Assembly (NCBI GenBank): GCA_051313645.2
Contig: JBNRSN020000022.1
Coordinates: 57,970,001-58,034,000 of the forward strand
Direction: 5' to 3'
DNA length: 64,000 nt
From: Centroscyllium fabricii
Lineage: Eukaryota
A model generated the notes under the pieces. It searched no databases, had not been told where the DNA came from, and saw only the letters and a program-made list of their open reading frames with translations. The position numbers were made by a program, and so were the translations under genes. Below are positions 1,590 to 12,088 of the stretch, piece after piece. Each line of letters starts with the position of its first letter. Position 1 is the first letter of the stretch.

Positions 1590-3104
1590 CTGGACTCCAT
1601 CTTTGGTTAGAATATGGTTGAGCTCTGTCATGGAATTCTACATGGCATTGAGAAATAGGACAGCTGCAAAAGAGATTGGAATATGAACAGGAGTAACTTG
1701 GACCTTGGATGTGCAACTTGTAAGTAGGTTTTGCTTGTTAATTGAGGACAGTTTTGATCATTGCAAATGGGTATTATCATAAAATTGCATTAAATTCCAT
1801 CTGTTTGTTATAGTCAAGGATTCAATAAAACTAGGTACATAGTAAATGGAGATCACTATATAACTCGGAAGTCAGGTTGACAATCTGACTACAGCCCTTA
1901 TTAAGGTAAGATGTGTGAGACCGTATCCAATGGATAGTCTCAAGCCTCGTTGTTTTCACACCAGCAACGAGATAAAAGCAGTTCAGTACAAAGTCTGGTT
2001 TAATAAAATTGCATGGCTGTCTATTTCACTGCCTAGGAACATTTTAAACTTCATTTTTAATATTGAGAAGTAACACAAATTTAACCAGCATTTGGAAGCC
2101 AATGAGCAAGTGCGCAGTGCCATTTTCCATGAGCAAAGACCAACCGCAGGAGCTGGCAGCATAACTGTAGTCTACTGCACCACATTATGGTCTACAACCC
2201 CGTATTGCACTCTTTTAATACAGGACCTAGACTTGTCGTATAAGTGGCTCCTAAATTACCAATCTTAGCTAAGCAGAAGGTAGCATTTCCCCACAGTGAG
2301 GGGAAAAAATCTGAGTCATTCCAGATTGTCCCTGCATCTACCAGTCATAGAATTTTACAGCAAAGAAGGAGACCATTTGGTCCACCAAGGGCGATGGCTC
2401 TCGGCCCTATTCCTTTACCTATTCCTTTACCTTTTCTTCATACATTTTGCTTTAGTCTAACTGGGTGTGGCCATGTAACTACTTCGCCAAAAATAACTTT
2501 AAGGATGCAATCTACTCTTAATTCATATTTGTTAATTCAAAAGGTTTTGATAACATTTTATTAAAAATTTTATTTGAATTACCGGAGAATCTGATTTTTT
2601 TTTCAGGAAAGCACTGATTTTGAATTAACAGGAGTAGAGCATAGTTCAATCTATCCATGTTATGATTTTTACAGCTCATGGCTAACGGCAATTTTTGGTT
2701 AAAACATTTTTGGCTGTAAGCGATTATTTTTTTTTGGTTGTTCAGCCAGGTATCTAATGCACACGAAGCCCGCCATGGTTTTTAAGTATCTAAGCTAACT
2801 TGAGAAATCCACACGGTAGAGCTTGTCTGAGATGTGCACACAAACACTCTCTGGAGGGACACATTTCACTAGCCCAAATCCAGTAAACTTGAGCACAGGT
2901 TGTGTGGCGGGGTATTGCTCGAGTTTAACCAGCTAAACCATGCAGCTCACCAAGGCTGCTTCCCGATTGTTTTGGTCTTTGTTTATCTAGGACCACTCCA
3001 CACACTAGGCGTGCTGGGTGAATTGCAGTCAAGTGCAAAGAATCCCAGCCACCCGTGACCGATCTACACCTTCAGGCTCCATCAGTGAGCTAGGCTCCCC
3101 TGTA

Positions 3105-4222
3105 CAGGGTGCGACAAAAAAAAATTTTGGATTTCTAAAACACTTGCCCGAACACACATTTCACTTGCCCAAAAGTTTTAAAGAAATAAATAAAAAAATT
3201 ACATTTTTATTAAAATGCTTCAAGATAAAGCCATAGATTGTGATTGTTCCTGTAGTTGCATTGGCCTGGTTTCTGCCCCTCGCTCCCTAAAACTATTGGC
3301 CTCTCCATCCTATTCCACATTTAAAAATCTTTTCAAAAATCTATTTCCTCAAGCATTCACTCCATTTCTTCATTTGTCTCTTCCAAACTTTCTGTGAAGG
3401 CTCCCTCACTCTCTCTCCCCGCCTACCTTCGTCCAGCAGCCGCTCCAGGTGGGTGAAGATGCCGCAAAAGTTGGGCAGGCTCGACTTCAGCTTCTTGTCA
3501 TTCATCAGCTGCATCAAATAGTCGGGACTGGGTCTCGGCTTCTCCGTCACTTCCATTTCCCCCACCATTCTGTTATATATATTTTCCCCCCTCTGAGGAG
3601 TAATTTAAAGATTTTATAATTGATCAAAAGAATAAAGACCCAGGGCATGACAAAACCAAGGGGGCACAGACATGAGCATTTAGCCATCAATCACTAGATC
3701 TGGCTGCACCACATCAAGCACCATCTGACCTGACTCTCCTGTGCCAAAGCCGCCAGGGTCCTCCTGGGTATCAACATTGACTCAGTGGTAGCATTTTTGT
3801 CTGAGTCTTGAGGGTACAAGCCTCATTCCAGGAGTTCTCAGAAACAGCTCCGTTTTTTTCTCTTCCCCCCCCCCCCCCCCCCGCCCCCCCCCCCCAAGCG
3901 GGTCGACGGCACCGACCCACTCTTGCCACGCTGCATCAGCCCGCTCCACCTAACCCGACTGCTGCCCCGATTGACACGCCGCCTCCTCCAATCCCAGCCG
4001 CGCCGCCCGGCCCCCCTCTAGCCAATCCACACCCGCCTCCAGGGCGGGATCCACCCATCCATTCCCGTCGTCGTCAACCAATCAATTTGACGACACGCCG
4101 CCTCCTCCAATCGACCGCCGTGGCAAACCAAGACGTGGCCTCGATCATCGATGAGAAATGCATCGCACTTGCCCCTTCGGCGCATTTTGCTTGCCCCGGG
4201 CAAGCGGTTTTGTCGTGCCCTG
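3105..4222. mobile_element. Non-autonomous hAT-like DNA transposon carrying captured host sequence (Pack-TIR)
   Basis: TIRs CAGGGTGCGACAAAA / TTTTGTCGTGCCCTG (13/15), direct repeat CTGTA on both flanks (3100-3104, 4223-4227), and subterminal (CA/G)CTTGCCC motifs at both ends (about 3141, 3162, 4166, 4189). Confidence 0.75.
3427..3568 (-). pseudogene. qki: Captured copy of QKI (quaking) coding exon 1, most of the QUA1 dimerisation region
   Basis: [47 protein letters not shown] matches the QKI N-terminus. Homology stops after 142 nt at G|GTAGGC, a phase-1 donor. No further QKI exon was seen in the window. Confidence 0.9.
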
Positions 4223-4431
4223 CTGTAGTACTGGAGACCTGCCTGGTTCAGATATTGGGTTACCCAAGTCTTGGTTGACTTGGGGGTTGACCTGGTTTCA
4301 AACAACCATTACCAGGCCCTGAGGTTAGTTAGCAGTTAGCCCTCAATAAGTGGCTGGCAATAGCAGGGGCTGCTCACAGGGATTAGGAAACAGCACAACT
4401 CAGCATAAAATATACAAGTGCATTTCCCCCA

Positions 4432-6527
4432 AGATATCAGGGCAAAGAGAGAGAGTATGAGAAAAGATTAGGAGGTAACATATAAGGGAACCCAAAAGTC
4501 TTTTATAAACATTAAAAAAGTAAAAGGATAGTTAAAGGAATGATGGGGCTGATTGGGGACAAAAACGGAGATCACTGAGGTACTGAATGAGTACCTTGTA
4601 TCCGTTTCCACAAAAGAAGAGGATGAAGTTAATGTACAAGTAGACGAGAGGTTTGTAGAGATATTAGATAGGATAAAAATAGATGGAAAGGAGGTGCTAA
4701 ATAGGTTGGTATCACTCGAGGTTAACAAATCACCCGGTTCAGGTGGGATGAATCATAGGTTGCTGAGGGTAGCTAGGATGGAGATAGCAGAAACTCTGAC
4801 CACAATCTTTCAATCCTCCTTGGAGGATGTGGTGTCAGAGAAGTGGAGGATTGCAAATATTCAAAAAGGGGGAATGGGATAAACTTGGTAACTACAGGCC
4901 AATCAGTCTAACGTCAATGGTGGGAAAACTGCTGGAGACCATTGTCGAGCACAAAATTAATTCTCACTTGGAGAAGCATGGGTTAATAAGGGACAGCCAG
5001 CGCTGATTTGTTAAAGGCAAATCATGTCTGAGTAACCTTGATGAAGTAACAGAAAGGGTTGATGAAGGTAGTGCAGTAGACGTGTATATGGACTTTCAAA
5101 GGCATTTGATAACGTACCTCACAACAGACTCGTTCGGAAAATATAAGCACATGGTATTAAAGGGACAATTATAACTTGGGGACAAAATTGACTAAGGGAT
5201 AAGAGGCAGAGAGTAGTGGTAAACGGATGTTTTTCTGGAGAGTACGCCGTGGTGTCCCCCAGGGGTCGGTATTGGCACCATTGCTTTTCTTATATATAAA
5301 TGACCAGGACTTAGAAACATAGAAGATAGGAGCAGGAGTAGGCCATTCGGCCCTTCGAGCCTGCTCTGCCATTCAATGAGATCATGGCTGATCATCCAAA
5401 CCCAGCACCCTGTCCCTACCTTGTCCCCATATCCCTCGATCCCTATCGAGCCTGCACCGACACATATCCCACGCTATCCCCGTAACCCCACATATTCAAT
5501 CCCCCTAACACTAAGGGTCAATTTACCATGGCCAATCAACCTAACCCGCACATCTTTGGACTGTGGGAGGAAACTGGAGCACCCGGAGAAAACCCACGCA
5601 GACACGGGGAGAATGTGCAAACTCCACACAGATAGTCACCCGAGGCTGGATTTGAACCCGGGTCTCCAGTGCTGTGAGGCAACAGTGCTAAGCACTATGC
5701 CACCGTGCCGCCCACCGACTTGGGTATAGGGAGTACATTTTTGATATAATTTGGTAAATGTGAAGTGATGCACTTTGGGCGAAGCAACATGGAGAGGCAG
5801 TATAATCTAAATGATATTATTTTGAGTAGGGTGCAAGAACGGGGGGACCTGGGGGTGCATTTACAAATCGTTGAGAAGGCAGTTAAGAAAGCGTATAGGA
5901 TACTGGGCTTTGCAAATAGGGGCACTGAACATAAAATCAAGGAAGCCATGCTGAACCTTTACAAATCTCTGGTTAGTCCTCAGCTGGAGTATTGTGTACA
6001 GTATCGGGCACCACACCTTTTAGGAAGGATGTCAAGACCCTGGAGAGTGTGCAGAGGAGGTGCACCCAATTGGTACCAGGGATGAGGGAGTTCAGAGATG
6101 TGAAGAGATTGGAGAAGCTGGGATTGTTCTCATTAGAGCAGAGAAGGTTAAGGAGAGACTTAATAGTGGTCATCAAAATTATAAGGGGTTTTGATAGAAC
6201 AAGTAGGGAGAAATTATTTCTTCTGGCAAGAGGGTCATTAACCAGAGGTCATAGATTTAAATTAATTGGCAAAAGAACGAGAGGGGAAATAGAAAAATAT
6301 CTTCATACAGAGGGTTGTTAAGTTCTGGAACGCACTAACTGAAAGGGTGGTGGAATCAGATTCCGTAACATTTAACCGACAATTGGGCATGTATACGAAG
6401 AGGACTAATTTGCAGAGCTATGGGGAAAAAGCTGGATGTGGAAATACATTGGACAGCTGTTTCGAAGAGCTAGGACAGGCATGACCGGCTGAATGGCCTC
6501 CTTCTGTACTGTAAGATTCAATGATCC
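4432..6527 (+). mobile_element. Degenerate CR1 LINE (ORF2 RT region to 3' end), interrupted by a SINE at 5312-5713
   Basis: Frameshifted pieces such as KSPGSGGMNHRLL, LYKSLVSPQLEYCVQ and TRGHRFKL are collinear with the intact ORF2 at 8038-10914. Confidence 0.85.
5312..5713 (-). mobile_element. HE1-like V-SINE, full length
   Basis: Highly similar to 288-680. A short GACTT duplication lies at both flanks inside the CR1. Confidence 0.85.
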
Positions 6528-6549: not shown

Positions 6550-7416
6550 GGGCTGGACTTTGTCAATGAGGAGCTTTTGGAGGTGGGACTCCCGCTTTTG
6601 GGGTTGTAGTTCCGCCTCCATCGATTTGTGGCCAACCCACGCTACTTAGATAGCAAAATACTGCGGATGGGCCACGCTACTTTCCCTTGATTGACCTTGT
6701 TAAGCTCACCCAGCGGGCTCAGCAGGCCAACTAAGGGACACCTGGTTACTGGTGATGTCAGCGATTGACATTTCATCTGTCAAGAGCTTTAAACAGATAA
6801 AAAATCAGCATTTGACAGCTCTGTGAAGCTGTCAAACACTGACAATCTGTCATCTAACTTGAGTCCTTTTACTCAGACTCAGTTAGAGAGCTCTCCAGAC
6901 CAGAAAGCAGAGGCTGCAGCTTTTGACAGTTCAGCGGCCATTCTGCTTTCTATGCCGGTGAGCTGAGGGACTCCCGAGAACTGAAGGGAGGAAGCCTGCA
7001 GGAGAAAGTAAAGGTAAGTAAAACTTATTAAAACACTTTACACTTACCTCACACACTTACCTCTGCACACATGCACCCATCACTCACCTGCACAATGGAC
7101 ATCTCGACCCCTCCAATCCCTTCAGATCAACGGTCCGCCTCGCTAACTTGGTGTGGTTTGGAGCTGTCTGGAAGCCCACACTTTGGGGCTAAAAATAGGA
7201 ATTAGGCAAAAAACTGCCTGTCAACTACCTGTTAACAGGCAGTTAATTGGCACTAATCCCCTTCCCGCCTCGAGGAGGCGGGTCCCAGCACAGGTCGGAT
7301 ACCCGCCTCCTGGGACATTGGCACGGAGGAGGGTTGGGGGCGGGATGGGTTCCTGGCCTCCGATTCTGCAATTTTCCCACCACTCCCGCCTCCTCGGGGC
7401 TTGGAAATTCGAGACC
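6550..7416 (-). mobile_element. PIF/Harbinger-type MITE, copy B (inverted relative to copy A)
   Basis: Reverse complement of 797-1589 over its whole length, with its own 3-bp TSD ACC (6547-6549, 7417-7419). Confidence 0.8.
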
Positions 7417-7979
7417 ACCATGTCCCATTGAGCAGTGGTTCCAAGTTGTAGGTGCAGAACTTCAGCAGAAACTGCTTACTTTTTAAAGTAGGCACTAAGC
7501 CCTGGATATATAGGCACATGTTCTGATACCCAGCCACCAGATAATATCTTCTAGCAGCTGTTATTATGCCTAGTCCGAGTTTCTTCATAATCTGTTGACC
7601 GCTTGCATCATAATAAATATTTTGGACATCCAAGGGCCATGCTGTGTACCAAGCTTGCTCGTCAACTGCTTAATCCTGTCCTCCTTCATGAGGGGTTGAC
7701 CGACAAGTGCCCGTACTTGGTGACCAGTTGTTATAGGCTGGCATCCTCTTTCCCTGCTTGCCCCTTTTGACATAAATTACCTCCTAGTTTGGTCTTGGAT
7801 CCAGCACGTGTGAATTTGTGAATATCACACATAGCTTAAAGGAAGCCCTCCATCGCATGCCCAGGTGTTCTGCACCGAAAAGAACTGTTTGGACACTTCT
7901 GGTACGCTAAACACTTAACCTGATTGGATTTTGCTGTCCATTGGAGGAAGATCAAATGCGCCTTTCATTCCTTCTGAAC

Positions 7980-10900
7980 GGGTTGGGGTGGGTTTAAACT
8001 AAATTGGCAGGGGGAGGGGACCCAGAGTGAAGGCATAATGGGTAGGGGAATACAACCTAATAAAGGTAAGCAGACTACACAGCAAAACAAGGTAGTATTA
8101 GGTCAGAGAATGAAAGGTATATATTTTAACGCAAGGAGTCTGACTAACAAGGTGGATGAGTTAAAGGTATTGGTTGACGCATGGGAATATGATATAGTAG
8201 CTATCACGGAGACGTGGCTGAAGGAGGGGCAGGAATGGCAGCTAAATATTCCGGGGTATAGAATTTTCAGGCGGGACAGAGACGAGGGAAAAAGGGGAGG
8301 GGGGGTAGCGATACTGATTAAGGATTCAATCACAGCCATCAGGCGGGTCGACCTAATGGATGATTCCTCAAACGAGGCACTATGGGTGGAGGTAAAAAAT
8401 ACAAAGGGGGGGGGCACCTTACTGGGAGTATATTATAGACCACCAAACAGTAAAGGGGAGATGGAGGGTAAGATATGTGAGCAAATCACGAAGATAAGCG
8501 AAAATAACAAAGTAATAATATTAGGGGACTTTAATTTCCCCAACATCAACTGGGATTGTCAGAGTGTGAGGGGCACGGAAGGTTCAGCATTCTTAAAATG
8601 CAGCCAAGAGAGTTTTTTGAAGCAATATGTTGGGTCACCTACAAGGGGGGGGGCGGTACTAGACCTAATACTTGGGAACGAAGACGGGCAGATAGAGGAG
8701 GTAACAGTGGGGGAGCACTTCGGGGATAGCGACCACAATTCAGTTAGTTTCAAGATTGTAATGGAGAAGGATAAAAATGGACATGGGGTTAAAGTACTAA
8801 ACTGGGGGAAGGCGGATTTCATTAAAATTAGGCGCGATGTAGCCGCAGTAGACTGGGGCCATCTTTTCAGAGGAAGATCTGCATCAGAGCAGTGGGAGGC
8901 CTTCAGAGGGAAGGTCGGGAAGATACAGGAGGAACATGTTCCTGCAAAAATCAAGGGCGGGGGAGGTAAACAAAGGGAACCTTGGATGTCTAGGGATATA
9001 TGTAAATTAATGAAGAAAAAAAGGGGGGCCTTCAATGAATATAAACGGCTAAAAACTGAGGAGGCGCTAGGGGAGTATAAGAAGTATAGGGGGGAATTAA
9101 AGAAGGAGATAAGAAAAGCCAAGAGGGGTCATGAGATTGCAATGGCCGGCAAAATCAAGGATAACCCTAAGGCATTTTACAGTTATATAAAAAACAAAAG
9201 GATCACGAGGGAAAGAATGGGGCCCATTAAGGACGATAGCGGAAAGCTGTGCGTCGAGCCCGAGGCGGTGGGGGAGGTACTAAACGAATTTTTCTCTTCA
9301 GTATTCACAAGAGAGAGGGACGGAACCGACATCGTAATCGGACAGAGTGTAGGGGGGGTAATTGAGGATATTACCATTACAAGGGAAGAAGTACTAGAAA
9401 TCTTGGGAAGCTTAAAGGTAGACAAATCACCAGGGCCGGACGCGATGTTCCCCAGGCTGCTGTTCGAGGCCAGGGAAGAGCTTGCGGGCCCCCTGTCTCA
9501 AATTTTCAGGTCCTCTCTCGCGTCAGGGGATGTACCCGAGGACTGGAGAACGGCTAATGTAGTACCCCTGTTTAAAAAGGGTAGTAGGGACAAACCGGGT
9601 AACTATAGGCCAATCAGTCTTACATCTGTAGTGGGGAAAGTAATGGAAAAAATTCTGAGGGACAAAATCAGTCTGCATTTGGAAAAGCAGGGTCTGATAA
9701 GGGATAGTCAACATGGCTTCGTCAAAGGTAAGTCGTGCCTAACTAATCTCTTGGAATTTTTTGAAGAGGTAACAAAGAGGGTGGATGAAGGGAGTACGGT
9801 TGACGTGGTGTATATGGACTTCAGCAAGGCTTTTGATAAAGTCCCACATAGGAGACTAATAACAAAGGTTAAAGCACATGGGATACAGGGCAACTTGGCA
9901 CAGTGGATTCAAAATTGGCTGGGGGATAGGAGACAAAGGGTAATGGTAGAGGGCTGCTTCTGTGACTGGAAACCAGTAACCAGCGGTGTCCCCCAAGGAT
10001 CGGTTTTGGGACCCTTACTGTTTCTAGTATACATCAATGATTTGGACATGGGAGTAGGGGGTACGATCAGCAAATTTGCTGATGATACGAAAATTGGAAG
10101 GGTGGTAAATAACGATGAAGATAGTAAAAGGCTCCAGGAAGATATAAATGTAATGGTTAGTTGGGCAGAAAAATGGCAAATGGAGTTCAACCCAGAGAAA
10201 TGCGAGGTCATACAATTCGGCAGACCAAATGGGGTAAGGGAATATACCATGAACAAAAAAACGTTAGGTAGGACCGAGGAACAGAGGGACCTTGGGGTAC
10301 AGGTGCACAGCTCCCTGAAGGTTGCTGGACACGTAAACAAGGTGGTTAAGAAGGCATACGGAATTCTGGCCTTTATTAACCAGGGCATAGTATACAAAAG
10401 TAGGGAGGTAATGTTAAACTTGTATAACACGCTGGTGAGACCTCAGCTGGAGTACTGTGTGCAGTTCTGGTCACCGCACTTCAGGAACGATGTGGTTGCC
10501 CTGGAGAGGGTGCAGAGAAGGTTTACCAGGATGATACCTGGTCTGGGGGACTTATGCTACGAGGAAAGGCTGGACAGGCTGGGGTTGTTTGCCTTGGAGA
10601 AGAGAAGATTGAGGGGTGACATGATTGAGGTGTACAGGATCATGAGAGGACACGATAGGGTGGATAAAGGGGCATTGTTTCCCTTGGTGGGAGAGTCAAG
10701 TACTAGGGGACATAGATTCAAGATTAGGGGGGGGAGGTTTAGGGGGGAGGTAAGGAGAAATTTCTTTACTCAGAGGGTGGTGGAAGTGTGGAACTCCCTG
10801 CCTGTAAGGGTGGTGGAGGCAGAAACCATCGCAACATTTAAAAAATATTTGGACCAGCACATGAAGGACCGTAACATACAGGGTTATGGGCCAGGTGCGG

Positions 10901-10995
10901 GCAAATGGGGTTAGTATAGTGAGGAGTTTCCTGGGCCGGTGCGGACTGGATGGGCCGAATGGCCTTTATCCGCACTGTAAAGTTTCTATGATTCT
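7980..10995 (+). mobile_element. CR1 LINE, 5'-truncated in ORF1, with intact ORF2 and 3' UTR
   Basis: Probable ORF1 end (GGTTTAAACTAA), a full ORF2, and a CR1-type tail ending TTTCTATGATTCTA. Confidence 0.9.
8038..10914 (+). CDS. CR1 ORF2: APE-type endonuclease plus reverse transcriptase (958 aa)
   Basis: EN motifs YFNARSL, ITETWL, YRPP, LGDFN and SDH; RT motifs NYRPISLTS, YMDFSKAFD, GVPQGSVLGP and KFADD; uninterrupted frame. Confidence 0.95.
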   Translation: MGRGIQPNKGKQTTQQNKVVLGQRMKGIYFNARSLTNKVDELKVLVDAWEYDIVAITETWLKEGQEWQLNIPGYRIFRRDRDEGKRGGGVAILIKDSITAIRRVDLMDDSSNEALWVEVKNTKGGGTLLGVYYRPPNSKGEMEGKICEQITKISENNKVIILGDFNFPNINWDCQSVRGTEGSAFLKCSQESFLKQYVGSPTRGGAVLDLILGNEDGQIEEVTVGEHFGDSDHNSVSFKIVMEKDKNGHGVKVLNWGKADFIKIRRDVAAVDWGHLFRGRSASEQWEAFRGKVGKIQEEHVPAKIKGGGGKQREPWMSRDICKLMKKKRGAFNEYKRLKTEEALGEYKKYRGELKKEIRKAKRGHEIAMAGKIKDNPKAFYSYIKNKRITRERMGPIKDDSGKLCVEPEAVGEVLNEFFSSVFTRERDGTDIVIGQSVGGVIEDITITREEVLEILGSLKVDKSPGPDAMFPRLLFEAREELAGPLSQIFRSSLASGDVPEDWRTANVVPLFKKGSRDKPGNYRPISLTSVVGKVMEKILRDKISLHLEKQGLIRDSQHGFVKGKSCLTNLLEFFEEVTKRVDEGSTVDVVYMDFSKAFDKVPHRRLITKVKAHGIQGNLAQWIQNWLGDRRQRVMVEGCFCDWKPVTSGVPQGSVLGPLLFLVYINDLDMGVGGTISKFADDTKIGRVVNNDEDSKRLQEDINVMVSWAEKWQMEFNPEKCEVIQFGRPNGVREYTMNKKTLGRTEEQRDLGVQVHSSLKVAGHVNKVVKKAYGILAFINQGIVYKSREVMLNLYNTLVRPQLEYCVQFWSPHFRNDVVALERVQRRFTRMIPGLGDLCYEERLDRLGLFALEKRRLRGDMIEVYRIMRGHDRVDKGALFPLVGESSTRGHRFKIRGGRFRGEVRRNFFTQRVVEVWNSLPVRVVEAETIATFKKYLDQHMKDRNIQGYGPGAGKWG

Positions 10996-11962: not shown

Positions 11963-12088
11963 GTATCGGAAGTTAGAAGAACATTAACACCTTCAAATTC
12001 ACCAGTATCATCACCAAGTAAAAATGGAGACCGGTTTATTCCTTCAAGAGCAGCAGCAAACTGGAGTATAAACTTTCACAGAATAAAT
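11963..12088 (+). CDS. fzr1: FZR1/Cdh1 in-window exon 1 (C-box DRFIPSR); the ATG exon is upstream of the window
   Basis: ag|VSEVRRTLTPSNSPVSSPSKNGDRFIPSRAAANWSINFHRIN|gt, 126 nt. Confidence 0.97.

Follow-up and report, generated by a model that had tools for sequence, protein, structure and literature searches.

A cut-and-paste hAT transposon family that probably carries the 5' end of quaking-A at an estimated 4,500 sites in the genome of Centroscyllium fabricii

In a 64,000-nt stretch of contig JBNRSN020000022.1 of Centroscyllium fabricii (positions 57,970,001 to 58,034,000, hereafter the window), what reads as the first coding exon of a quaking gene, with its start codon and splice donor, lies between inverted repeats within an intron of another gene. 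How did it get there, and does it serve any function? A sequence-only reading had proposed that a Pack-type hAT transposon captured exon 1 of QKI, and that the resulting cassette could yield QUA1 peptides, fused to others or dominant-negative, or else antisense RNA with homology to QKI. In the reading that we favor, with a probability of roughly 0.8, the element belongs to a cut-and-paste hAT family that carries the 5' end of quaking-A (qkia) at an estimated 4,500 sites, and the cargo is likely a neutral passenger. Promoter or exon-trap effects at single loci may occur, and would then be a side effect.

The element is bounded at 3105-4222 by imperfect CAGGG terminal inverted repeats (TIRs) with ACTTGCCC subterminal repeats, and these, the CTGTA target-site duplication (TSD) on both flanks, the 142-nt open exon with its donor and the KKLKSS reading within it were all present as first described. 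Its transposase sense is the minus strand. The features are as follows (window coordinates; quaking-A assignments follow the alignments discussed below):

3100-3104, no strand: left TSD, CTGTA, 5 bp, from the sequence
3105-3237, minus: hAT 3' TIR and 3' subterminal arm with ACTTGCCC repeats, 87-95% to the 3' end of autonomous copy L196
3238-3398, minus: filler common to other subfamily members (3285-3385 present in 57 loci compared), without counterpart in the autonomous element
3399-3426, minus: start of quaking-A intron 1, GT donor at 3426-3425, from alignment to the parent intron
3427-3568, minus: quaking-A coding exon 1, 142 nt, ATG at 3568-3566, open frame and G/GT donor
3569-3640, minus: quaking-A proximal 5' untranslated sequence (window 3399-3643 versus parent, 86%, with gaps)
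3641-3657, plus: 17-nt copy of the 5' TIR, nested and inverted, opening a ~195-nt subfamily-specific insert
3679-3748, plus: old LINE scrap within the insert, which we take to be L2-like, 75-85% to three dispersed copies
3771-3835 (about), plus: decayed SINE-head-like scrap within the insert, 67-71% to five dispersed copies (E 1e-4 to 0.04)
3836-3983, minus: quaking-A distal 5' sequence, GC-rich; 3897-3983 aligns to the parent as far as an assembly gap, and 3835-3925 aligns to copies without interruption
3984-4167, minus: GC-rich segment with CCAAT and GC boxes, putative quaking-A promoter DNA, adjoining parent-matching DNA and missing from autonomous copies
4168-4222, minus: hAT 5' subterminal arm and 5' TIR, 91% to the first 55 nt of autonomous L196
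4223-4227, no strand: right TSD, CTGTA, 5 bp, from the sequence
11963-12088, plus: next coding exon of the host gene, presumably fzr1; the preceding (first) coding exon lies ~1.4 kb left of the window

The dispersed copies bear out both the L2-like and the SINE-head scrap of the earlier reading, which had overlooked the GC-rich 5' cargo (~3836-4167), the nested inverted 5'-TIR end at 3641-3657 and the existence of thousands of copies. Since coding exons of the host gene, which we presume to be fzr1 from its motifs, lie on both sides of the element and on the plus strand, the element is intronic and its cargo antisense to that gene, as had been proposed. A nested QKI paralogue beside the window was considered and rejected, as downstream QKI exons are absent from the 80 kb to the left and from the rest of the contig.

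Two quaking genes are present in this genome: canonical QKI on contig C1044, with exon 1 ~206 kb above exon 2, and a quaking-A paralogue on contig C834, with exon 1 ~40 kb above exon 2. Exon 1 of the paralogue equals the window copy at 135 of 142 nt (the 7 differences being 5 silent changes, K8T and M28K) versus 78% for QKI, and the latter was rejected as the source. In addition, C834 exon 2 is 47/48 identical to three shark quaking-A proteins, and the best database matches of the window exon are quaking-like or quaking-A proteins of cartilaginous fishes. These comparisons indicate that the cargo derives from the fish paralogue quaking-A and not from canonical QKI; the claim of a captured exon 1 with ATG and donor therefore held, and its attribution to QKI did not. 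Quaking-A has been reported as likely lost in tetrapods (PMC4699748), and qkia as required for zebrafish muscle development (PMC11457510).

At least 398 nt of the parent are represented in the cargo, namely ~32 nt of intron, the exon itself and, on its 5' side, 224 nt that extend as far as a 200-N assembly gap. Because intron bases are included, capture from spliced mRNA is excluded, as had been argued, and ~32 intron bases after the donor together with the absence of exon 2 set the copies apart from a processed pseudogene or retrocopy. The alignment to the quaking loci that had been suggested for finding breakpoints thus located the 3' side of the match, while the 5' breakpoint falls inside the parent's assembly gap. 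Beyond that gap the cargo is extended by the GC-rich stretch with CCAAT boxes, which is missing from autonomous elements and has no similarity to the QKI paralogue; owing to the gap at that place, its origin as qkia promoter DNA is only putative. The filler past the donor was considered as more parent intron and rejected, the matches being short (75-87%). Parent intron 1 turns into a long GA-rich minisatellite exactly where the cargo match stops (locus L096:1-2345), and the true 3' breakpoint may therefore be hidden. No family TIR was found in 100 kb around the parent. Horizontal transfer from a distant lineage need not be invoked, as V7 is common to the parent and the family and absent from five other cartilaginous-fish quaking-A proteins. 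Among the 148 longest of 238 ORFs no further host domain exceeded the Pfam cut-off, and no Rfam match at E <= 0.05 was found in 12 loci. At C1:569204295-569204429 and C1155:255023673-255023792 the KH region of QKI has weak matches (58-60%), of which one contains a stop codon; these are likely other STAR-family genes or pseudogenes.

How many copies does the family have? A 211-nt query returned 1,181 first-look candidates genome-wide, and all 40 candidates that were scored were at least 95% identical. Exact patterns matched 290 times within the exon, 1,556 times across the exon end and donor, and 3,251 times for a 25-mer of the 5' end, with 0 matches for the reversed control patterns; TIR-like ends thus recur throughout the genome. 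Considering that these patterns were exact in only 10/41 (exon), 22/63 (donor) and 14/42 (5' end) copies picked by other modules, scaling gives estimates of ~1,190 full-exon copies (95% range 740-2,100), ~4,450 donor-bearing copies (3,300-6,400) and ~9,750 5' ends, with some elements having two. In public runs of other studies, contig X13 covers the exon (3413-3543) and contig X6 crosses the junction with the nested TIR (3606-3754), which argues against an assembly artefact; the organism labels of these runs are coded, mixed samples may include host DNA, and the contigs are no evidence of sharing between species. The one run presumed to be RNA had a DNA-like profile and bears on expression in neither direction.

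Copies with the cargo and distinct TSDs were recovered by the genome search, as expected of transposition with cargo. Among 69 distinct two-ended elements, 37 have exact TSDs (28 of 5 bp, 5 of 6, 2 of 7, and 2 of 8), 11 have one-mismatch TSDs of 6-7 bp and 21 have none, while shuffled flank pairs gave a TSD of at least 5 bp in 0.1%. A cargo-blind sample was also drawn, consisting of 40 family ends from the first 100 of the 3,251 matches listed, all on contig C1 and with near neighbours skipped; its 26 elements with both ends yielded TSDs of 5 bp in 8 cases, 6 bp in 2 and 7 bp in 1, and ~10 began at an internal end. Pooled exact TSDs (n = 48) are therefore of 5 bp in 36, 6 bp in 7, 7 bp in 3 and 8 bp in 2, and the canonical hAT length of 8 bp is found in 2/37 and 0/11 in the two samples. 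Since a 5-bp TSD defines hAT5 (PMC12730594; PMC9004415), and hAT5 and hAT6 are published exceptions to the 8-bp TSD (PMC12730594), the family would be hAT5-like by TSD length, in agreement with the 5-bp group first proposed. The likeness to hAT5 extends to the hAT transposase and the modal TSD, whereas a quarter of the exact TSDs here (12/48) are of 6-8 bp though the family has one set of ends, which may reflect a loose transposase or several related transposases.

Both autonomous and non-autonomous members have the TIRs of ~15 nt (imperfect CAGGG) and the ACTTGCCC repeats characteristic of hAT elements. Host non-TE DNA lies between the TIRs, the parent is without this TE, and several copies have distinct TSDs, as in Pack-TIRs. 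In 37 full-length copies there are 238 non-redundant ORFs, and the 148 longest of them yield nothing beyond a weak remnant of the hAT C terminus, QUA1 and pieces of nested LINEs, with no intact transposase. By membership, then, the family is a multicopy, non-autonomous Pack-TIR of the hAT superfamily. Four loci (L018, L019, L027, and L030, on C945 and C1377) have identical flanks on both sides, indicating that they were re-amplified within a larger repeat.

In a long subfamily the final 530 nt of a transposase gene of hAT type are retained, and through this remnant an autonomous partner of 2.76-3.06 kb was found, with the same ends and no cargo. Autonomous copies L192 and L196 have 5-bp TSDs. 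The partner's transposase contains zf-C17orf113 and hAT dimerisation domains (the latter, PF05699, at 22.7 and 23.4 bits versus a cut-off of 21.4), and its relatives are ZNF862-like and KIAA1586-like. The autonomous copies are 84-93% alike by segment and broken, and no intact copy was found among the 20 fetched. An autonomous element carrying the exon, i.e., a QUA1-transposase fusion gene, was also considered and rejected, as no autonomous-length copy among those 20 has cargo and the long-subfamily remnant is neutral.

In transposase sense the long form reads 5' arm (~100 nt), qkia 5' region, exon 1, donor, filler, transposase C-terminal remnant and 3' arm. An internal deletion into which foreign DNA was filled during repair would be expected to produce this order, as in the gap-filling or fork-switching models of capture given by Tan et al. 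(2021; PMC8277862). We infer that an autonomous copy was broken internally and that its repair likely involved a template switch to the qkia 5' region, which would have replaced ~2.1 kb of transposase DNA and left ~100 nt of the 5' arm and 530 nt of the 3' end. The hybrid would have retained both ends and presumably was mobilised in trans; subsequently, deletions, inserts and added outer ends would have produced the subfamilies, including the window type and the commonest, ATG-less type, and the family is likely extinct by now and decaying.

The window type (about 285 candidates) is without the transposase remnant and has in its 5'UTR the ~195-nt insert composed of the inverted 17-nt 5'-TIR end, the LINE scrap and the SINE-head scrap. 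The junction is identical in 19/19 fetched copies, and movement of the inner 3641-4222 unit alone was rejected on the same count. In the commonest type the 5'UTR is joined to the last ~20 exon bases at a 9-nt word, GGAGCGGCT, and the ATG is deleted; this microhomology junction was present in 22/23 such copies of the cargo-blind sample. Many copies have an internal 5' end plus an extra outer end. Three loci (L030, L126, and L069) contain a tandem 57-61-nt unit with the exon end and splice donor, giving 2-3 donors per copy, and L103, L125, and L126 have 5-6 exon matches each.

Did the cargo contribute to the spread of the family? In the cargo-blind sample, 28 of 40 ends carry qkia DNA (23 the 5' region and donor without the ATG, 3 the 5' region only and 2 the full exon) and 12 carry none. 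With 28/40 ends bearing qkia DNA the cargo may have helped the spread, though all copies stem from one capture. In the strongest version of this idea, which we consider unlikely, the qkia 5' region gave the transposon an advantage, either as an active or unmethylated promoter that opened chromatin or through weaker silencing because the host cannot silence qkia, and cargo copies out-competed empty ones. Consistent with it, 26 of the 28 keep the 5' region without the full exon, and bat Helitrons are described as more numerous when they carry promoters or first exons than when they carry other parts of genes (PMC4224331). However, a single capture event provides no replication, the loss of the ATG is explained by the 9-nt microhomology, the CpGs decay, and for maize TEs with captured fragments no copy-number increase is described (10.1101/777037). 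A neutral passenger therefore remains our preferred reading of the cargo.

We regard as highly improbable that the cassette has been kept for QUA1 fusion or dominant-negative peptides, or for qki-homologous antisense RNA. ATG, frame and donor are intact in the window copy and in 45 of 98 exon-selected copies, the long-subfamily exon lies in sense and upstream of the hAT dimerisation remnant, and the pre-mRNA of the presumed fzr1 would contain the exon antisense, so that antisense RNA may follow from the geometry of the locus. However, 38 of the 98 copies are frameshifted or truncated and the commonest form is without an ATG. Relative to the column majority, dN/dS of the 98 copies is 0.85-0.88, and with transition weighting it is 0.96-0.97 (67 copies), 1.2 (19 window-type copies) and 1.3-1.75 (20 long-type copies), with 0.97-1.02 for the transposase remnant; these samples were mostly chosen for similarity, which biases them toward conserved copies, and the substitution counts lack phylogenetic independence. 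GT persists at the donor in 87/98 copies versus 91% expected, and in 18/22 ATG-less copies. With dN/dS at ~1 and the donor retained no better than by chance, there is no support for a QUA1 peptide under selection. The exon is moreover short of the domain end: the window exon (3568->3427) matches positions 1-35 of 53 of the Pfam STAR_dimer model, and residues 3-36 of the 56-residue construct 4DNN. The proposal of a functional cassette is consequently unsupported. Considering that 45/98 copies still have ATG, frame and donor, averages over the whole family would not reveal the co-option of a few.

The two amino-acid changes of the window copy occur in few other copies. M28K is found in 2/98, with the Met kept in 78, and the Met-to-Lys change that had been noticed is best read as decay. 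The CpGs of the window copy are intact, as reported earlier, but this does not extend to the family, in which CpG transitions are ~three to four times as frequent as other C/G transitions, as expected from methylation. Copies are thus decaying, with no sign of constraint. At exon columns 2, 83, 100, and 144 of the 98 copies, several T sites have three alternative bases, with T-to-C and T-to-G frequent; subfamily structure may explain these sites.

An origin in retroposition, segmental duplication or misassembly, with the TIRs incidental, can be dismissed for most copies in spite of the four loci that share both flanks, given the intron bases, the scatter over many contigs in differing flanks and with differing TSDs next to the TIRs, the autonomous partner with the same ends, and the public-run contigs covering the exon and nested-TIR junction.

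The parent gene itself has diverged from its transposed copies. Relative to the family majority it has 5 fixed silent differences, plus 2 sites that vary among subfamilies; polarised against the QKI paralogue only, the family equals QKI at 3/5 of the fixed silent sites and the other 2 are uninformative, which weakly suggests that the change in qkia came after capture. Across the non-coding cargo, parent and majority disagree at 30/241 sites (12%), versus 4.5-10% by region (about 6.5%) for the copies. This extra divergence could be explained by biased sampling, by a lag between capture and spread, or equally by a faster rate close to the end of the 43-Mb contig. Escape of the parent from small-RNA homology is a lead only. 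It belongs to a broader conjecture, which we hold as possible and rather doubtful, that ~4,500 working promoter-donor cassettes exist, some serving as alternative first exons for host genes, and that silencing of the family also affects the qkia promoter and exon 1, an epigenetic conflict through gene capture; were this so, 12% versus about 6.5% would be an escape signal.

Plant Pack-MULE and Pack-TYPE elements and the epigenetic-conflict model (10.1101/777037) offer one comparison. The plant elements resemble the family in mosaic cargo, nested rearrangements and a high-copy TE that shares host-gene sequence, and differ in that the host here is a vertebrate and the element a hAT. Another comparison is with the animal Pack-TIRs, e.g., frog hAT-N8_XT with the CAPSL 5'UTR (PMC8277862), which likewise have host DNA between hAT TIRs, distinct TSDs and an unlinked parent without TIRs. 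Tan et al. (2021) found 4 multicopy cases among 370 Pack-TIRs in 100 animal genomes, animal Pack-TIRs being almost always single-copy in their survey; the examples in the main text have 3 and 5 copies, in contrast to ~1,200 full-exon and 4,500 donor-bearing copies here. The authors call their own list highly conservative, and the word 'shark' is absent from the main text (PMC8277862). The cargo layout is also that of HelibatN3 of vesper bats, as described in two reports, in which promoter, 5'UTR, coding start, donor and a little intron of NUBPL occur in ~thousand copies and exon trapping in cells was shown (PMC4778049; PMC4224331). Unlike HelibatN3, a Helitron of rolling-circle type, the qkia family is a cut-and-paste hAT with TIRs and TSDs; its anatomy would nonetheless fit an exon trap of the HelibatN3 type.

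The mechanism is ordinary, the scale unusual and the lineage little studied for Pack-TIRs. In the literature searched, bat Helitrons were the only vertebrate case in which a captured promoter and first exon had been amplified en masse, and a qkia-bearing hAT family was not reported; Repbase and Dfam lay outside that search, and the family may already be in a repeat library. Here parent, autonomous partner and intermediates are all in one genome, which opens in a vertebrate the questions of promoter capture aiding TE spread, of copies as exon traps, and of TE silencing spilling onto the donor gene qkia. Some copies could act as stray promoters. In practice, ~thousand exon-1 copies will confuse qkia annotation, read mapping, and primer or guide design in this lineage.

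Several other repeats lie around the window copy. The same intron holds a LINE that is almost intact, with an open frame of 978 codons at 7978-10914 (plus strand) encoding endonuclease and reverse-transcriptase domains. Some way off on either side of the element, an 800-nt repeat occurs at 832-1589 and, inverted and 82% alike, at 6550-7393; a different repeat is present in direct orientation at 287-680 and 5319-5712 (94%). Intron 1 of canonical QKI (contig C1044, about 203,217,100-203,218,300) contains a deleted family member, also antisense; antisense placement in both this gene and the presumed fzr1, two of two, is anecdotal only.
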